Origin: Felis catus
Lineage: Eukaryota
Assembly (NCBI RefSeq): GCF_018350175.1
Contig: NC_058368.1
Span: forward strand, 93,126,001-93,190,000
Direction of reading: 5' to 3'
Length of the DNA stretch: 64,000 bases
The notes under the pieces were generated by a model. The model saw only the letters and a program-made list of their open reading frames with translations. It ran no database searches and was not told the DNA's origin. This document shows, in pieces, positions 13,201 to 45,430 of this stretch (position 1 is the first letter of the stretch; every line of letters starts with the position of its first letter). The position numbers were made by a program, and so were the translations under genes.

Positions 13201-13280
13201 AAGAATAGGACCCCTGGCCATGTTGGCAAAGGATTCTGCTCTGGGAATTTATCAACTGCTTTGTTTGTTTGTTTTCTTAA

Positions 13281-13412
<132 letters not shown>

Positions 13413-16400
13413 TAAGTACCATTTTTCATTCATTGTCATCCTGCTTTTTGTAACTCTGGGTCTTAATTTCCCATACTTGGTTATTCTTCTTTTGTGAGAG
13501 GGGGAAAAAAGAAAACACTGTCATGTGTGTTCCCAGAAGACATTATTTGGCAATTTAATAATTCCATAAATGAAATGCTGAGAAAATTGTCAGTTCTTTT
13601 TTGGACTCAAAAATCATCCCTTATTGGGAGCAGAGTCATTTAATATATTAATTAAAATGTCTTCTCAGTTTCTCTCTTTAGAAACCTTATTTTCAGTTGC
13701 AATTGTATATCTTAATATAACTTATTTATTCATATGGCTTGCCCTCGGATGTTTCGTTTGTATTGACTGCAAAATCTTGAAAAACATTTAATATTTTATG
13801 ATTGCTCTGGGTTTTTTTTTAAACAGGCTGCCAACATCTTTCTATGAAGGCAGTACCTACACTTGATTTAATACTTGCATTTTTAAACTAGTCTTTACTC
13901 AGGACATAGGGGATTTTCTATTTGCTGTATGTTCATTATAGATTTTATAGTGCCTTTTACAATGATTCTGACCTTACGGAGGCCACCATTATTCCATATG
14001 CTTAAGTTCTTTCATGTTATCTTGTTTCTATGCTATGTATAACTATCATAGACTTTGAAAAGACAAATGTCTATGTAGTAAGTATCAATAATGACTTGAA
14101 AGCCACCAGCTCTTTCTCCCCCAGGCTGGCAGCATCCTTACCGTAAGTACATTCATGTGGGCATCAGTCTCGAGGCTGTGCAGCCTTGCTCTTAACTCAG
14201 TGGCATTTCTGTATGGGGAAGAGCAGCTCAGTCACATGCGTGGGTCAGAAACGTGGCTTTTCTCATGCAGCCTACCAGGGCAATCACAGAATGGTGGGTA
14301 AACGCTAGGTGTCTGGATTACACAGTAAGGTGGGTCTTCTCAGAGCTGCCTAGCACAGCAGACCGGAAAAGCTCTGAAGCTGGAGTTTTTATTTTGTATA
14401 TTTAGGTAGTTCATAGGTACTGTATCACACTTCACATTCTATGGGAAATCACTAAGCATTCAAATGGTACCCTTTGACCTCTCCCTCTGACTATGTTTTT
14501 TGAATAACTATCGCTGGAAATGTGGACTGCGTCTAGAAATTGCTGCCTGCCTTAATGAGAATCAAATCCAGGCACCCTGAGATCTACAAGAGAGGGAGAT
14601 TCTGCATGGATGGTAGAGTGGCCAGCCCTCCTGGCCACTCAGAGCTATTCAGTCATGATCTTGCCACTACCAGCACCAAAGCGACATCATTTCACCTTTA
14701 GTTCTGTGACCTCACACCGGGCTCACAACTGTGCTTTCTGTCCCTTGTAAGGAAAGGCTAGAATCTTAAGGTAACACTCTTTCAAAGTGTGGGAAATTAT
14801 AAAAGCGAAACACAGAGGAACACGTAGGAGATCTGGCTCACACAGGGAGCTGCTTTGCTGAAGCTCATGGCCACCTTTATAACCAAATACCCACCCTGTG
14901 GAGCCTCCACATCTTTATTCCTTCAAGTTTAGATCTCAGAGAGCGAGTCCCCTAAGGGATGCTGGGCCTTCACTTCTGAGGCCAGGCCTCTCCCTCCAGG
15001 GCCACCAGACATAGCCCTCCTGGCACAGAGGGCATTCCGACACACCCACAACCATATAGGAACCTAACATTCATAGAAGAAGTATACACGGTATAATGTG
15101 TATATACTGGGAAAGCATTCTTTGTACTTTTAATGGTTTGCCACTAACCTATACTGCTCAAGTATATTAAAAAGAAAACTTACCTTTGTTGGTGTGGGCA
15201 GGTGCGGTCAGTCTATGGGTCAAGCAGCCACATACCCCATGTCCTCCGGGATCGTATTTATAACCCTTTCTATCAGAATGATGTACCTATTAAATAGATA
15301 ATGAAATGAAATTGGCCTTTGATGCCATTGGTGAGTTTTTATATCTAACAAAAACACTGGGAAAAATGCTTTGGTAGTTTCTGTAGTAATTTTGTAGCCA
15401 CATGTGAATGGTGGGTATTTATACATTTATATTTTTATTGTGAAATGCATTCATACTGAAACCTCAGGGGACAGACAGCTTAGGGATGGTCGCTGTAAGT
15501 TTTTTTTCAACTTTGTTCTAGGTTTGAAAATTTTTATAGTATGCTAGGAAAAAATATTTGGGGAAGCAAAGTTGACACATTGCCCCTAAGCAATTGTTAG
15601 ATTGCTGGAAGGTGGCCTGACCCGATTTTAAGAGTTTCAAGGCACAGCTTATGTGGGTCTTCCCAATGCTGCTTCAGGATAGAGTAACAGAGGAAACCCC
15701 TCATGAATTCTTCTGCTTCTTTGGCATTTCTCAGTCTGTTTCTTCGGTAGCAACATGAACTTCTAAAGTAGATGAGCTTCGAGCAGCTCAAATGTTCTGA
15801 ATTGTTTTTATGATATAGTCTTGGGGTTAGATTTCCATTGAGGTGGGAGGGGTACTTTGTAAAGAAAAATACAATTGGAATTTTATATGGGCTGGGTTTG
15901 GCTAGATGATTCTAATCGTGCATAATCTCTCATTTTAAGTTAGTGATACAGGAAAGCACACAGGGCTCGATTCTTAAGGGCAAGGCTCCCACTGCCTCCC
16001 ATTCAGACACAGTGAGACCATCAGCCTGGGTGAAATGGCATCGGGTGAAATCAGACCTTGCTGCTTGAGGGAGAAATTACAAACTCATTTGATAGAGCTC
16101 TCTCCCTGGCCTCTCCCATCCTCCCGTTTGACCTGAGAGCTTTTCCAGAGCTCTGTCTGGACTCCCCTCTTTTCCAAACTTCACAGCCTCTCTCCCTGAC
16201 ACGTGGCCTCCCTCGTCTCTGGTGGATGCCTGCTTCTCCAGGCTTGTGTCCTCTGTTTCACTAACGGATCTGTCTTTTTAGATCATCACTCAATGCCTTG
16301 AAGCATTCTGTTCCTAAATACCTTTGAATACTTTTTCTGGTATCAACTTTAACCTTAAAGCTCATCACTCTTCTATCTCAACCATAGACTCAGCAGTCGA

Positions 16401-16934
16401 CATGAACTTGTCTCAGAGCCGAGAAATTCAATACACAATTTCTCTGAGTTTCGGATGACCCACCTGTCAGAAAACCAGGCTTCTAAGAAGCCCCAACTCG
16501 GAAGAGATGGACGCCATCCAAAAAACACCACCAACATTATAATCATCCTACTATGTAGAACACTGTCCTTTTAACCCCATGACATTCATATTAGGTCAAA
16601 ACGGTTCCTACAGTTTACTTGGACATCGTGTATCAAAGAGGCCGTGATGACTTCCTAGAGGGTCTTCCTTCTGAACCTTGTTCTGGAGGAAGCGCTGTAT
16701 TTCAGGGGCGGGACGGAGGGGGGAGTCTCAGCAATGAAGGATGATACCATAAGCGAACCGTGTTTTTCTTTGATCACCATGCCAAGATCCTACAGAGCCT
16801 TAACAGGATCTCTCAGCTAATGAATCGAGCCCCCTGTGCACAACTGAACACCACACTGTGTTACTCTGTTCTGGAATATTTTACAGTTTTCTTTTCTTTT
16901 GTTTTGTCTTTTTATTTCAACAAAATGAAAATAG

Positions 16935-16943
16935 AGCTCGGAA
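16935..16943 (+). CDS. KCNN2: KCNN2 alternative 9-nt microexon (ARK insert, SK2-b/SK2-ARK type)
   Basis: Long pyrimidine tract then aaaatag|AGCTCGGAA|gtaagt. Spliced in, it reads CA-A GCT CGG AA-A TTA = Q-A-R-K-L, matching the known ARK splice insert of SK2. Confidence 0.9.
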
Positions 16944-16993
16944 GTAAGTTGTGTGAGCCGCTCCTCTCGACATTTGCAGAATTTTCTACCGGC

Positions 16994-17186
16994 TGCATGC
17001 ATCCAAGCGGGTCCTTTCTTTGTGAATTTCAGTAGTCTGATTGCTGCTATGGAAATGTGATCCAAAATCATGATACTTTCCTGTGATAAGTGAAGTTCAC
17101 AAGGAAGAAGTCAACATACGTTCCTTATTCTTCTTTTTTTTGTGGGGGGCGGGGGGGGGGGGTAGAAAGTAAAATACACATGCATG
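16994..17186 (+). promoter_or_regulatory. Candidate RBFOX (TGCATG) splicing elements downstream of the microexon
   Basis: TGCATG at 16994-16999 and 17181-17186, with another at 17724-17729. Confidence 0.55.
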
Positions 17187-19695
17187 TTACCTTTTATTCT
17201 GGCAGCTGCAGCTTTAAGTAGGCTTTTTCTACCAGTTCTAGGATACAGTCTCAAGAACAGCAAGGCAAGATGATTTAAGTTCAAGGAGCTTAAAGGGATT
17301 CTGATTCAATAGGGGGCTACCCTATGTCAGCTTTCCAGATTAGTGGAAAAAAAAACAACTGGGCAAAATTCTACTGTCAGAAACATAATATATGGTAATT
17401 CAAGAGCAGAGTACCCACCTCAGCTAAGGGACACACACTGGCCCTTTCACTGGGCTTGCCAACCTCAGGGTCTTGCCTGCACTCCCAAGTGGTTGGAGGC
17501 TTCTGATCTGGTTCCCCAGACTTGAGTCATTCATGTGTGAAGGGTCCCATTCCTTGAACTTGAAAATAAAGCTTGGTGTAAATCATTATCACAAAATGGC
17601 TAACCCAACAAAAACAAAAATGAAACAAAAACAAAAAGCCACTCCTGCTCCCAGCAAAGAGAAGGAGAGGTTGCATCCACCAACATTTGAAACACTGGTG
17701 TTGAATTCTAGCCACGGAACTGCTGCATGCAGGAAGCGCTCAGCTGAAATCCTGCTCTCTTTTCAAAAAGGAGAGAAGAGCAGGTGTTGGGAGATAAAAA
17801 CAGGAGAGGACCAGCCTGAGACATTTTTCTTGTAATAATCAAGAATTGGAAGAGGATAAAAGGGAGTAACTGTCTCTCCATCTGGTTTAGTATTTAATGT
17901 CTTCTGGTTTGAGTATCACATAGCCACCTCGAACACCTCTGTCGGTACAAATACAGCACTTTAGAAATACCATCCTATCCTAACCCACTTCATTTCATAC
18001 ATTAAGAAACTGAAGGTCAAATAGGGCCAGGGAGAAGGGAGTCCACATCTGACACTGTTGTTCTCTCTAGTACATTTCTGTAAAATGACCTCACACATGT
18101 TTAAAGGGTTGTTTTTTGTTTTTTGCAGGGGGGAGAGGGGTGGAAGGGGACTTGTTTTTAAAAGGTGTACATCAAGAATTGTAACCCTTGTGAGTACTTA
18201 GAGAAGCCTATCTCAACAACATGTTAGATTTGAATACCTGTTTGTAAATTCCTTTTACACTTACACCCAGTCCATCTCTAGAATAGTGTAGAAAAGAGCC
18301 AATTAACTTACTTCCAAGCATTCTAATAGGGAAACACAGACTCGCAACGGCAAGTGATAACCTTAAGCTGTTTTACATTGTTAAATATCATGTTATAGGC
18401 AGGTGTCAGTTAAACCCATACTGGCAGAAGGAAGTCTGTCTTCACTGTCAAGCAGACTTGGTGACATATTGCATAGCGTAGTTTCAAAACAAAATCACTG
18501 CGCACTACTGAACATTTGTTGTAAAAATCTCCCTGGCAGTAAAATCTTGCCCTGTGAATTTTTGATCCTTTTTTTTGTAACTACCTTTCATTGAAATTGG
18601 GAAATTATAAAGATTACTCTCTCCAACATCGACACTATACTCTGTAAATGACATGTCATTTACAGGTAATAAGGTTAGCATGGATTTTGTTTTTTGTTTT
18701 TTTGTTTTTAAACTAAGTACCCAAGAGAAATGTGCTTCTCATTTGGAGCATGGCTCGGATTGTTGGCTTAAAGAACAAACAACCCCTTTTCTCCTGTTGG
18801 AAAATCTTAATTTCTTGGTAGGGAGTAAGCACCCAATAAATACGTTTTCAAAAATATTATAGTAAATAAAGTAAGGACTAGTAAAAGTCATCCTTAAGAA
18901 AGATTTTTTTTTTTAACAGCAGTGTTTTGACTGTCAATCAGATATATGCACTGATATTTAAAAGCATCTAAAAGTAAGTTTACAACCAGAAACCCCATCT
19001 GTCAGACATTTTAATTGTCCGCTGACTTTTATCTACAAGAAAAAAATTAAGGGAAATTCTCCCAAGGAAATGGCCTGGCTTCCCTTCAAATTCGATGGCA
19101 GTTTAAGATAAAAGTCGAGCAAAACACAATGAAGAATAAGAGACTTATGTGTTTTGGGTTCTCTTGCTGCTGGTTGAATAAAAGTCTTATTTTTGCTACT
19201 AAGAATCTCACTTATCACTGTGTTTTCATCAGGTTCAAATACCTAACCCAATCCATCTCAAACTGAACAGGGCTATCCTGTGTATCTAGTCATGTAGGCA
19301 TAGGAAGGTGCTCACTGCTCCAACATTGATGAAAGTCTAGTCGCTTTGCCTATTTCTTCCTATGTCTATTTGAAATGATACTGGGATTTTAAGGAATGTT
19401 TTGGCTTTTCTCATATGGTTAAGTCCTTATGAGCCTCTCTCCCGATTCAACTTTTAACTCCCTGGTAAATAGTTGTCCTAAGGACACCTCATCTCTTACT
19501 CTCCTCTCTCTCTCTCTCCTTTCCTTTTTGCGGTGTTGGGGAAGCATGCTTCTCATTGTTCCAGATACATAACCAGTTTGAACTTGACCCCCAAATGTTC
19601 AAGGCATTATCCATGCAGTTATTTGCTCTTGTCGATTTTATGCATGCTCTTTGGAAGGCGTTATGACAGCAGTAGACAGGAAGGAACCCTTCTGA

Positions 19696-19965
<270 letters not shown>

Positions 19966-20412
19966 TAAATTATTCAAACCCCATTCTAAAAGCCTTCCTA
20001 CTTACAGTGACTTGAAAGTACCGTGGAAAATGTACATGGAATATGAGACAATACCATTGGGTTTCATATTTGTCCTTCAGTCTCCTCCCTCTGAGAGGAG
20101 AACTGCATCCTGGGTTTGACCATGACCTTCAGGGCTCCATAGGACTCATTGATAAAATTATTGTTTTTTATTTACTTTTAAGCCAACTCAGAAGACTGTG
20201 AAATAGTTTTCTAAGAACATGGACATCATCTTTTAAAAAAAAGGAATCAGTTTTCATAATTTATGATTCTTTTTTCATTATTTAAAAAATCATACTACTT
20301 TTTAAAAGGACATTAATAGTTCCCAGATTCCTCTTTCACACTTATAAGATTTATCTGGTTGATTTTTGGTTGTCCCTTTCAAGTAAATTCCACTTTAAAA
20401 GTATGAATATTT

Positions 20413-22495: not shown

Positions 22496-22822
<327 letters not shown>

Positions 22823-23140
22823 AAGAGAATCAGTTAACCACAAACTAAGACTTTTTGCCATCATATGGTCAATATTTTAGCTTTTATTGTAAAGCCCCTA
22901 TGGTTCTAATCAGCGTTATCCGGGTTCTGATGTCAGAATCCTGGGAACCTGACACTAAGTTTTAGGCCAAAATGAGTGAAAACTCTTTTTTCTTTTCCTT
23001 TCAGATGCACAAGGAATGCACCTATTATCGCTCTATAGATTGTTCCTCCTGTAATTTCACTAACTTTTTATTCATGCACTTCAAACTTTACTACTACATT
23101 ATATGATATATAATAAAAAAAAAAGTTAATTTCTGCACAT
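22823..23140 (+). other. KCNN2: KCNN2 3' UTR (end approximate)
   Basis: Repeat-free AT-rich sequence from the TAG to just past the first AATAAA. The cleavage site is inferred. Confidence 0.75.
23112..23117 (+). terminator. Polyadenylation signal AATAAA
   Basis: Canonical hexamer about 290 nt after the stop, with a GT-rich stretch (ctgtttggtc) downstream. Confidence 0.75.
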
Positions 23141-30755: not shown

Positions 30756-30972
30756 GGGGTGCCTTGGTGGCTCAGTTGGTTAAGTGCCCAACTTCGGCTC
30801 AAGTCATGATCTCATGGTTCATGGGTTTGAGCCCTGCATTGGGCTCTGTGCTGACAGCTCGGAGTCTGGGTCCTGCTTTGGATTCTATGTCTCCCTCTCT
30901 CTCTGCCCCTCCCCTGCTCATGCTCTGTCTCTCTTTCTCTCTCTCAAAAATAAATAAACATTAAAAAAAAAA
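30756..30972 (+). mobile_element. CAN SINE
   Basis: TSD aag(a/g)tgtct(t/c)tgcagcct. Confidence 0.96.
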
Positions 30973-31030
30973 AAGGTGTCTCTGCAGCCTGGAGAGTTCA
31001 AATAAACCAAACATTAATAATCATGGTTTT

Positions 31031-31632
31031 GACAAACTGGTGCAGTCACTTTCGAAGACAGTATGGAGATTCCTCAAAAAGTTAGAAATAGAACTACCCT
31101 GTGATCCAGCAATTGTACTACTAGGTATTTACTCAAAGGATACAAGAACATTAGTTCAAAGGGATACATGCACCCCTGTGATTATAGCAGCACTATCAAC
31201 AATAGCCAAATTACGGAGACAGCCCAAATGTCCACTGACTGATGAGTGGATAAAGAAGATGTGGTGTGTGGCATGCACACACATGCACACACACACACGC
31301 ACACACACACACACACACAATGGAATATTAGCCATGACAAAGAATGAAATCTTGCAATTTGCAACAAAGTGGATGCAGCTAGAGAGTATTGTGATAAGCA
31401 AAATAAGTCAGAAAAAGACAGATATCATATGATTTCGCTCCTATACGGAATTTGAGAAACAAAACAAATGAACATGGTGGGGAAAGAGAAGAAAACCAAG
31501 AAGCCGACTCTTAACTCTAGAGAACAAACTGATGGTCACTAGAGGGGAGGTGGGCAGAGGGATGGATGAAATAGGTGATGGAGATTAAGGAGTGCACCTG
31601 TCATGATGAGCACTGGGTGTTGTATGGAACAG
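31031..31632 (+). mobile_element. LINE-1 3' fragment (ORF2 C-terminus plus 3'UTR) lacking a poly(A) tail, with internal (CA)n
   Basis: Translates [26 protein letters not shown]. Flanked by direct repeat tcatggtttt. Confidence 0.92.
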
Positions 31633-34807: not shown

Positions 34808-34821
34808 AAAAAACAAAACAA

Positions 34822-36244
34822 TGGCACAAAAACAGACACATAGACCAATGGAATAGAATAGAAACCCCAGAACTAGACCCACAAACGTATGGCCAACTCA
34901 TCTTTGACAAAGCAGGAAAGAACATCCAATGGAAAAAAGACAGCCTCTTTAACAAATGGTGCTGGGAGAACTGGACAGCAACATGCAGAAGGTTGAAACT
35001 AGACCACTTTCTCACACCATTCACAAAAATAAACTCAAAATGGATAAAGGACCTGAATGTGAGACAGGAAACCATCAAAACCTTAGAGGAGAAAGCAGGA
35101 AAAGACCTCTCTGACCTCAGCCGTAGCAATCTCTTACTCGACACATCCCCAAAGGCAAGGGAATTAAAAGCAAAAGTGAATTACTGGGACCTTATGAAGA
35201 TAAAAAGCTTCTGCACAGCAAAGGAAACAACCAACAAAACTAAAAGGCAACCAATGGAATGGGAAAAGATATTCGCAAATGACATATCAGACAAAGGGCT
35301 AGTATCCAAAATCTATAAAGAGCTCACCAAACTCCACACCCGAAAAACAAATAACCCAGTGAAGAAATGGGCAGAAAACATGAATAGACACTTCTCTAAA
35401 GAAGACATCCGGATGGCCAACAGGCACATGAAAAGATGTTCAGCGTCGCTCCTTATCAGGGAAATACAAATCAAAACCACACTCAGGTATCACCTCACGC
35501 CAGTCAGAAGCCAAAATGAACCAATCAGGAGACTATAGATGCTGGAGAGGATGTGGAGAAACGGGAACCCTCTTGCACTGTTGGTGGGAATGCAAATTGG
35601 TGCAGCCGCTCTGGAAAGCAGTGTGGAGGTTCCTCAGAAAATTAAAAATAGACCTACCCTATGACCCAGCAATAGCACTGCTAGGAATTTATCCAAGGGA
35701 TACAGGAGTACTGATGCATAGGGCCACTTGTACCCCAATGTTCATAGCAGCACTCTCAACAATAGCCAAATTATGAAAAGAGCCTAAATGTCCATCAACT
35801 GATGAATGGATAAAGAAATTGTGGTTTATATACACAATGGAATATTACGTGGCAATGAGAAAAAATGAAATAGGGCCTTTTGTAGCAACGTGGATGGAAC
35901 TGGAGAGTGTGATGCTAAGTGAAATAAGCCATACAGAGAAAGACAGATACCATATGGTTTCACTCTTATGTGGATCCTGAGAAACTTAACAGGAACCCAT
36001 GGGGGAGGGGAAGGAAAAAAAAAAAAAAAGAGGTTAGAGTGGGAGAGAGCCAAAGCATAAGAGACTGTTAAAAACTGAGAACAAACTGAGAGTTGATGGG
36101 GGGTGGGAGGGAGGAGAGGGTGGGTGATGGGTATTGAGGAGGGCACCTTTTGGGATAAGCACTGGGTATTGTATGGAAAGCAATTTGTCAATAAATTTCA
36201 TATATAAAAAAAATAAAATAAAATAAAAGCCAAAAAAAAAAACA
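34822..36244 (+). mobile_element. Young 5'-truncated felid LINE-1 (L1_Fc-like)
   Basis: ORF2 C-terminus open from [13 protein letters not shown] to about 35508, then a frameshift and a TGA at 35774. 3'UTR and A tail present. Perfect 14-bp TSD aaaaaacaaaacaa at 34808 and 36245. Confidence 0.97.
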
Positions 36245-43184: not shown

Positions 43185-45430
43185 TTTCTTTTTGTTTTTG
43201 TTTTTGTTTTTTTTATTACTAAATTTATTCTCAAATTGGTTTCCATACAACACCCAGTGCTCATCCCAACAGATGACCTCCTCAATGCCCATCACCCACT
43301 TTCCCCTTCCTCCCACCCACCCCCCATCAACCATTAGTTAATTCTCAGTTTTTAAGAATCTCTTATGGTTTGTCTCCCTCCCTCTCTAATTTTCCCCCCT
43401 TCCCCTCCCCTATGGTCCTCCACCAAGTTTCTCAGGATCCACATAAGAGTGAAAACATATGGTACCTGTCTTTCTCTGTATAACTTATTTCACTTAGCAT
43501 AACACTCTCCAGTTACATCCATTTTGCTACAAAAGGCCATATTTCATTCTTTCTCATTGCCATGTAGTATTCCATTGTGTATATAAACCACAATGTCTTT
43601 ATCCATTCATCAGTTGATGGACATTTAGTCTCTTTCCATAATTTAGCTATTGTTGAAAGTGCTGCTATAAACATTGGAGTACAAGTGCCCTTATGTATCA
43701 GCATTCCTGTATCCGTTGGGTAAATTCCTAACAGTGCTATTGCTGGGTCATAGGGTAGATCTATTTTTAATTTTTTGAGGAACCTCCACACTGTTTTCCA
43801 AGGCAGCTGCACCAATTTGCATTCCCACCAACAGTGCAAGAGGGTTCCCATTTCTCTACATCCTTCCCAGCATCTAGAGCCTCCTGGTATGTTCACTTTA
43901 GCCACTCTGACTGGCATGAGGTGATATCTCAGTGTGATTTTGATTTGTATTTCCCTGATGAGAAGTGACATGGAGCGTCTTTTCACGTGCCTGTTGGCCA
44001 TCTGGATGTCTTATTTAGAGAAGTGTCTATTCGTGTCTTCTGCCATTTCTTCATTGGATTGTTTGTTTTTCGGTTGTGGAGTTTGGTGAGCTCTTTATAG
44101 ATTTTGGATACAAGCCCTTTGTCCGATATGTCATTTGCAAATATCTTTTCCTATTCTGTCAATTGCCTTTTAGTTTTGTTGATTGTTTCCTTTGCAGTGC
44201 AGAGCTTTTTATCTTCATGAGGTCCCAATAGTTCATTTTTGCTTTTAATTCCCTTACCTTTGGAGATGTGTCAAGTAAGAAATTGCTGCGGCTGAGGTCA
44301 GAGAGGTTTTTTTCCTGCTTTCTCCTCTAGGGTTTTGATGGTTTCCTGTCTCACATTCAGGTTCTTGATCCATTTTGAGTTTATTTTTGTGAATGGTGTA
44401 AGAAAGTGGTTTAGTTTCATTCTGCATGTTGCTGTTTAGTTCTACTAGCACCATTTGTTAAAGAGACTTTTTTTCCATTGGATATTCTTTCCTGCTTTGT
44501 CAAAGATTAGTTGGCCATACTTTTGTGGGTCCAATTCTGGAATCTCTATTCAATTCCATTGGTCTATGTGTCTGTTTTTGTGCCAATACCATGCTGTCTT
44601 GATGATTATAGCTTTGTAGTAGAGGTTAAAGTCTGGGATTGTGATGCCTCCCACATTGGTCTTCCTCTTCAATATTACTTTGGCTATTCAGGGTCTTTTG
44701 TGGTTCCATACAAATTTTAGGGTTGCTTGTTCTAGCTTCGAGAAGAATGCTGGTGCAATTTTGATTGGGATTGCATTGAATGTGTAGATTGCTTTGGGTA
44801 GTATTGACATTTAACAATATTTGCTCTTCCAATCCATGAGCATGGAATGTTTTTCCATTTCTTTGTATCTTCTTCAATTTCCTTTATAAGCTTTCTATAG
44901 TTTTCAGCATACGATCTTTTACATCTTTGGTTAGGTTTATTCCTAGGTATTTTATGATTCTTGGTACAATTGTGAAAAGATAAGAACCATATTATCCTGT
45001 CAATTGATGCAGAAAAAGCATTTGACAATATTCAGCATCGTTTCTTATTAAAAACCGTCAGAAAGTGGGGATAGAAGGATCACACTTAAACATCATAAAA
45101 GCCATTTATGAAAATCCCACAGCTATTATCATCCTCAATGGGGGAAAACTGAGATCTTTCCCCCTGAGATCAGGAACATGATAGGGATGTCTACTCTCAC
45201 CATTGTTGTTTAACATAGTATTGGAAGTGCTAGCATCAGTGATCAGACAACAAAATGAAATAAAAGACATCAATATTGGCAAAGATGAAGTCAAGCTTTC
45301 ACTTTTTGCAGATGACAAGTTATTATACATGGATAACCCAATAGACTCCACCAAAAGTCTGCTAGAACTGATACATGAATTCAGCAAAGTCACAGGATAC
45401 AAAATTAATGTACAGAAATCAGTTGCCCTC
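43185..45430 (-). mobile_element. 5'-truncated, 5'-inverted felid LINE-1 (minus arm 43185-~44975, inverted RT arm ~44976-45426 on +)
   Basis: Minus arm carries the ORF2 C-terminus, 3'UTR and tail. Plus arm carries RT motifs ([16 protein letters not shown]). TSD tggt(c/a)tgtgcttta at 43171 and 45431. Confidence 0.96.

Follow-up and report, generated by a model that had tools for sequence, protein, structure and literature searches.

The locus described here raises the question of whether nine nucleotides standing far from either end of a long intron of the cat gene KCNN2 (SK2) are a genuine exon, and, if so, which exon this is and how it is likely to be used. The stretch of DNA that was analysed (64,000 nt, hereafter the window) contains the 9-mer AGCTCGGAA only once on the plus strand, at 16935-16943, as determined by a window-wide search. 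It is immediately flanked by an acceptor AG at 16933-16934 and by a donor GTAAGT at 16944-16949. The preliminary description of the window had proposed that this 9-mer is a microexon of phase 2/2, which converts the junction IHQ|LRS into IHQ-ARK-LRS, and both the sequence and its translation bear this out: Ala-Arg-Lys is placed between IHQ and LRS, the skipped form reads QAIHQLRS, the included form reads QAIHQARKLRS, and the frame is free of stops both ways. The intron in which the microexon resides is 6304 nt long, with an upstream part of 3523 nt and a downstream part of 2772 nt. The gene features to which the text refers are as follows:

13284..13411, plus strand: KCNN2 constitutive exon on the 5' side of the microexon, with a length of 128 nt and a final phase of 2 (9 of 9 distinct SK2 sequences matched in the PDB search)
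16935..16943, plus strand: 9-nt cassette microexon, phase 2/2, adding Ala-Arg-Lys (same bases as in the mouse primer; position matches MmuEX0025108)
16944..16949, plus strand: consensus donor GTAAGT (from the sequence)
19716..19785, plus strand: KCNN2 constitutive exon 3' of the microexon, 70 nt, starting with LRSVK (PDB matches and frame)
22535..22822, plus strand: coding part of the last KCNN2 exon, with a TAG stop (91/95 residues identical to 9vu9_A)

The host gene is SK2 and not one of its paralogs. Both flanking exons, of which the one at 13284-13411 encodes the first part of the calmodulin-binding domain, match SK2 chains in PDB, the matches to the intermediate-conductance channel being far weaker, and the last exon shares 91 of its 95 residues with the full-length SK2 chain 9vu9_A (about 4-5 differences). 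The named homologs among the 120 protein matches listed in the homolog search (see below) are either SK2/KCNN2 or hypothetical proteins. The attribution of the DNA to a felid fits as well, inasmuch as the best match of the last exon among the proteins fetched is an entry from Panthera onca (95/95), followed by that of a bear (93/95). A single A[A/T]TAAA signal is found at 23112, 290 nt past the KCNN2 stop.

In an intron of this length, a string composed of AG, nine nucleotides and GTAAGT could be in frame by accident. To assess this, the 6304-nt intron was shuffled 1000 times with its dinucleotides preserved. The bare pattern is indeed common, since 476 of the 1000 shuffles contained AG + 9 nt + GTRAG, and a second real string of this kind, which encodes a stop, is present at 18965. 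Much rarer is what distinguishes the string at 16935: a 9-nt AG..GT cassette coding for exactly the known ARK peptide was obtained in 1 of the 1000 shuffles (in none with GTRAG) and is unique in the window on either strand, while a tract of at least 16 T in 20 upstream of a 9-nt GTRAG cassette, present at 16935, did not appear in any of the 1000 shuffles. In addition, the microexon occupies the position orthologous to that of the mouse exon. The probability of an accidental string is therefore regarded as negligible, such an origin having already been refuted by the agreement with the mouse exon in both sequence and position, detailed below.

Other cassettes of the same intron were also considered. 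Among eight frame-length AG..GTRAG candidates, four introduce a stop, and of the four open ones only that at 16935 combines ARK with a strong T tract. Apart from the string at 16935, frame-length strings with the full GTAAGT donor lie at four sites of the intron, 14063-14077, 14125-14142, 15468-15494 and 18965-18973; three of them contain a stop, and the remaining one (18 nt) is open and has a T-poor tract. All four are probably decoys. An alternative acceptor at 16935-16936, within the 9-mer itself, would leave a 7-nt exon and shift the frame, whereas the upstream AG at 16885-16886, when paired with the same donor, gives an open, in-frame exon of 57 nt (16887-16943) which also ends in ARK, yet is absent from all proteins fetched.

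The 9-mer is best explained as the conserved KCNN2 cassette microexon, 9 nt in length, from which the SK2-ARK (SK2-b) isoform arises, a reading to which we assign a probability of about 95% on the basis of its splice sites and frame, the identity of the gene, the orthologous position and the identical peptide across tetrapods. The mouse counterpart, MmuEX0025108 (VastDB identifier), is listed in table S2 of PMC8797185 as a 9-nt exon of the group Neural, flanked by introns of 3408 and 2589 nt, which are within 3-7% of the 3523 and 2772 nt measured here. Furthermore, the qPCR primer used for mouse SK2-ARK ends in the same nine bases, extended by the initial base of the exon that follows (PMC4048344), so that the primer, the coordinates and the intron lengths all place the same bases at the same intron position in both species. 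A 9-nt Kcnn2 cassette exon, lying in a conserved stretch and with both isoforms abundant, was likewise detected by RNA-seq of mouse retina (OLego, Fig. 6F of PMC3664805), although no Kcnn2 row is contained in the three supplementary files of that work which were examined. With respect to length, intron and similar intron lengths, no difference was found between the exon of the cat and that described in these two mouse sources. The SK2-ARK isoform of Scholl et al. 2014 (PMC4048344), reported for chicken, mouse and trout, agrees with the present one in gene, junction, the three residues and, as to mouse, the bases of the primer, the species being the sole difference.

The exon is, then, the felid counterpart of an exon on record from mouse, human and chicken, and its identification as the SK2-ARK/SK2-b exon in the preliminary description was right, as evidenced by the mouse primer bases and exon position. 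The accompanying statement that the isoform is known "in other vertebrates" holds true, but is too narrow if understood as distant vertebrates only, since mouse qPCR, mouse retina RNA-seq, a human brain exon list and a VastDB event all attest to it in mammals. No kcnn1 or kcnn2 row was present in the examined supplementary files of the zebrafish microexon paper PMC12626420.

A structural counterpart is found in PDB 3SJQ. In chain C of this entry the two exon-encoded matches are separated by 4 residues (50 to 55) versus 1 residue in 8 of the 9 SK2 sequences, hence this SK2-b calmodulin-binding peptide resembles the included form in having three extra residues between the same exon-encoded stretches. 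The structure is that of Zhang et al. 2012, and its three-residue insert is taken to be ARK in view of the citation of that work in PMC4048344.

The paralogous gene KCNN1 (SK1) also possesses a 9-nt microexon, MmuEX0025103, which inserts three residues at the same place (PMC4048344, PMC8797185). It differs in encoding AQK instead of ARK, in having much shorter introns and in being filed as a general alternative exon, not a neural one (PMC8797185); moreover, AQK reportedly does not lower Ca2+ sensitivity relative to the insert-free SK2 (PMC4048344). A literature search on the KCNN1 AQK exon returned nothing. The existence of this paralogous exon suggests that the microexon may be older than the SK1/SK2 split.

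How widely the insert is represented in protein models was determined by a homolog search, which gave 250 matches among 1651 candidates; 120 matches were listed and 66 further cluster members were added. QARK is present in 10 of the 120 matches listed, as opposed to 103 with the skipped form and 7 unresolved, while the 66 cluster members comprise 4 with QARK, 48 skipped and 14 in which the junction falls outside the sequence. As the survey covers cluster representatives and only some of the cluster members, these fractions are a poor guide to how often the exon is actually included. No insert other than ARK occurs in the 165 resolvable vertebrate SK2 proteins of both sets, 14 of which have ARK and 151 of which do not. 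The carriers include mammals, birds, a gecko, a tortoise, frogs and a caecilian, among them a vole, mouse (XP_030106191.1), the badger Meles meles (XP_045856395.1), ducks, a swift, a tinamou and two Xenopus species, and both isoforms are present for Aythya, X. tropicalis, X. laevis and mouse. Judging by this survey, where most SK2 models lack the insert and some have it, the exon is often missing from gene models, yet it is not unknown to annotation. The remark that it is easily missed holds in part: in 2013 the 9-nt exon was missing from mouse RefSeq and ESTs (PMC3664805), its human counterpart appears in a brain list of exons that Ensembl 70 lacks (Supplemental File 1 of PMC4317164), and the sole felid protein among those fetched (P0183, 162 aa) represents the skipped form. 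Present RefSeq models of mouse and badger, on the other hand, do carry ARK.

That single felid protein is also what could be put forward in favour of an intact ortholog which has become silent, or nearly so, in the cat lineage and persists only owing to slow divergence. Such a state of affairs is very improbable, because both splice sites are preserved, as are all nine bases, in agreement with mouse, a RefSeq model with ARK exists for another carnivoran, Meles meles, and in mouse both isoforms are abundantly expressed (PMC3664805). A used SK2-ARK exon remains by far the better account, though the assertion that it is functional in this felid should be read as an expectation from conservation, and neuronal inclusion in this species would be presumed to be alike to that elsewhere. 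Published data from other species point to partial, neural-enriched inclusion, with an age-dependent increase in the forebrain of mouse and the cochlea of chick. In the chick cochlea SK2-ARK accounted for 23% of clones at E12-14 and 37% at E20, and in mouse hippocampus and cortex it increased about four-fold from P8 to adult (PMC4048344).

The consequences of the insert for the channel, which the preliminary description linked to calmodulin and Ca2+ sensitivity, are likewise in print (PMC4048344 and papers citing the peptide structure). When chicken channels were expressed in oocytes, ARK shifted the apparent KD for Ca2+ from 0.48 to 0.61 µM and raised the Hill coefficient, which was 4.9 without the insert, to 10.1 (PMC4048344). 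According to the same source, binding of Ca2+-free calmodulin amounted to 142% with ARK, that of Ca2+-bound calmodulin being unchanged, while the surface level was 29%, binding of alpha-actinin-1 81% and co-precipitation of the alpha9/10 nicotinic receptor 173%. The published effects of ARK, which sits in the calmodulin-binding domain, thus amount to a lower and steeper Ca2+ response, fewer channels at the surface and altered binding of partners. As regards calmodulin conformation, citing papers describe an S-shaped calmodulin with all four EF hands occupied on the insert-bearing peptide, crystallized at pH of about 4.7, and one of them states that its own KCa3.1 data do not support the S-shaped conformation. 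Therefore the conformational claim holds for the peptide at this crystal pH and may not carry over to the whole channel.

The surroundings of the microexon offer some hints as to its regulation. The relevant elements are listed below:

16887..16918, plus strand: T-rich polypyrimidine tract, set back by about 16 nt relative to the acceptor AG (pyrimidine fraction)
16919..16934, plus strand: A-rich, TGC-free spacer of 16 nt, including the acceptor AG 16933-16934 (from the sequence)
16994..16999, plus strand: TGCATG at +51, candidate RBFOX site (motif; role suggested by PMC4317164)
17181..17186, plus strand: TGCATG at +238, candidate RBFOX site (motif; putative role)

The pyrimidine fraction upstream of the microexon reaches 0.85 at -50..-16 and only 0.35 at -20..-3, compared with 0.71 at -20..-3 of two constitutive acceptors. 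Alternative microexons typically have their pyrimidine tract set back in this way, and TGCATG is enriched in their downstream flanks (PMC4317164). The proximal downstream intron does contain TGCATG, as would be expected for an RBFOX-enhanced microexon; two copies within 300 nt have a Poisson probability of 0.005 at the rate of the window and of 0.024 at the rate of the intron, both calculated post hoc. Three more copies are located in the intron at 14603, 17724 and 19641, which makes five in 6.3 kb against 23 window-wide.

In SRRM3/4-dependent neural microexons, UGC, the motif of SRRM4, is expected between the pyrimidine tract and the acceptor AG. Here, the nearest TGC is at -98 and none occurs between the tract and the AG. 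Taken together, the two downstream TGCATG and the lack of UGC near the acceptor are suggestive of an RBFOX-type and not an SRRM4-type control, in which RBFOX proteins bound downstream would switch the microexon on in neurons. Given the tiny size of the exon and the distance of its pyrimidine tract from the AG, skipping is proposed to be the default. This combination of default skipping and RBFOX-type activation in neurons is considered fairly probable, though it is put forward less firmly than neuronal inclusion itself. The mouse ortholog MmuEX0025108 was placed in the control group Neural, which is defined as neural but not eMIC-regulated (PMC8797185). Alternatively, inclusion could be driven by SRRM3/4, as in most neural microexons, the TGCATG copies being incidental; about 90% of neural microexons are promoted by SRRM3/4 when these are ectopically expressed, and the set-back tract, as a feature of alternative microexons in general, would suit such control equally. 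With no TGC closer than -98 this alternative appears unlikely, and other splicing factors constitute a further option. A literature search on Kcnn2 and Rbfox splicing found nothing on the control of this exon, and an RBFOX-switched, SRRM4-independent control may represent a link that is perhaps undescribed.

The microexon also borders on a phosphorylation site. S465 is a PKA site of rat SK2, and in heart cells its phosphorylation relieves the rectification of the current (PMC7496687). This serine is contained in LRSVK, the start of the 70-nt exon, and the insert ends two residues before it (L-R-S). Upon inclusion of ARK, positions -3 and -4 relative to S465 are occupied by Lys and Arg, instead of the Gln and His of the skipped form. 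As the insert places basic residues at these positions, it might alter the choice of kinase acting on S465 or the efficiency of its phosphorylation, in which case splicing would also set the adrenergic response. This is a speculation and we consider it rather doubtful; if true, however, splicing would tune the adrenergic control of the channel beside its Ca2+ sensitivity. The relation may be undescribed, the main text of PMC7496687 having no occurrence of either "ARK" or "splice".

As a discovery the locus carries little weight, since published work already covers the exon and its peptide, as well as how it is expressed in mouse brain and what it does to the channel. Its value is that of a correct annotation point which is hard to spot, the isoform being absent from most SK2 protein models (151 of the 165 resolvable).

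With regard to repeats, no copy of any of the 20 largest repeat families is seen in the region of the microexon intron (13213-20394). Dozens of SINE copies of about 200 nt, with a CT-rich stretch and an A tail, are scattered on both strands throughout the window and are presumably related to carnivore Can-SINEs. Finally, open frames are present at 30965-31432, 34810-35538 and 43513-44010, which resemble C-terminal pieces of LINE-1 ORF2.
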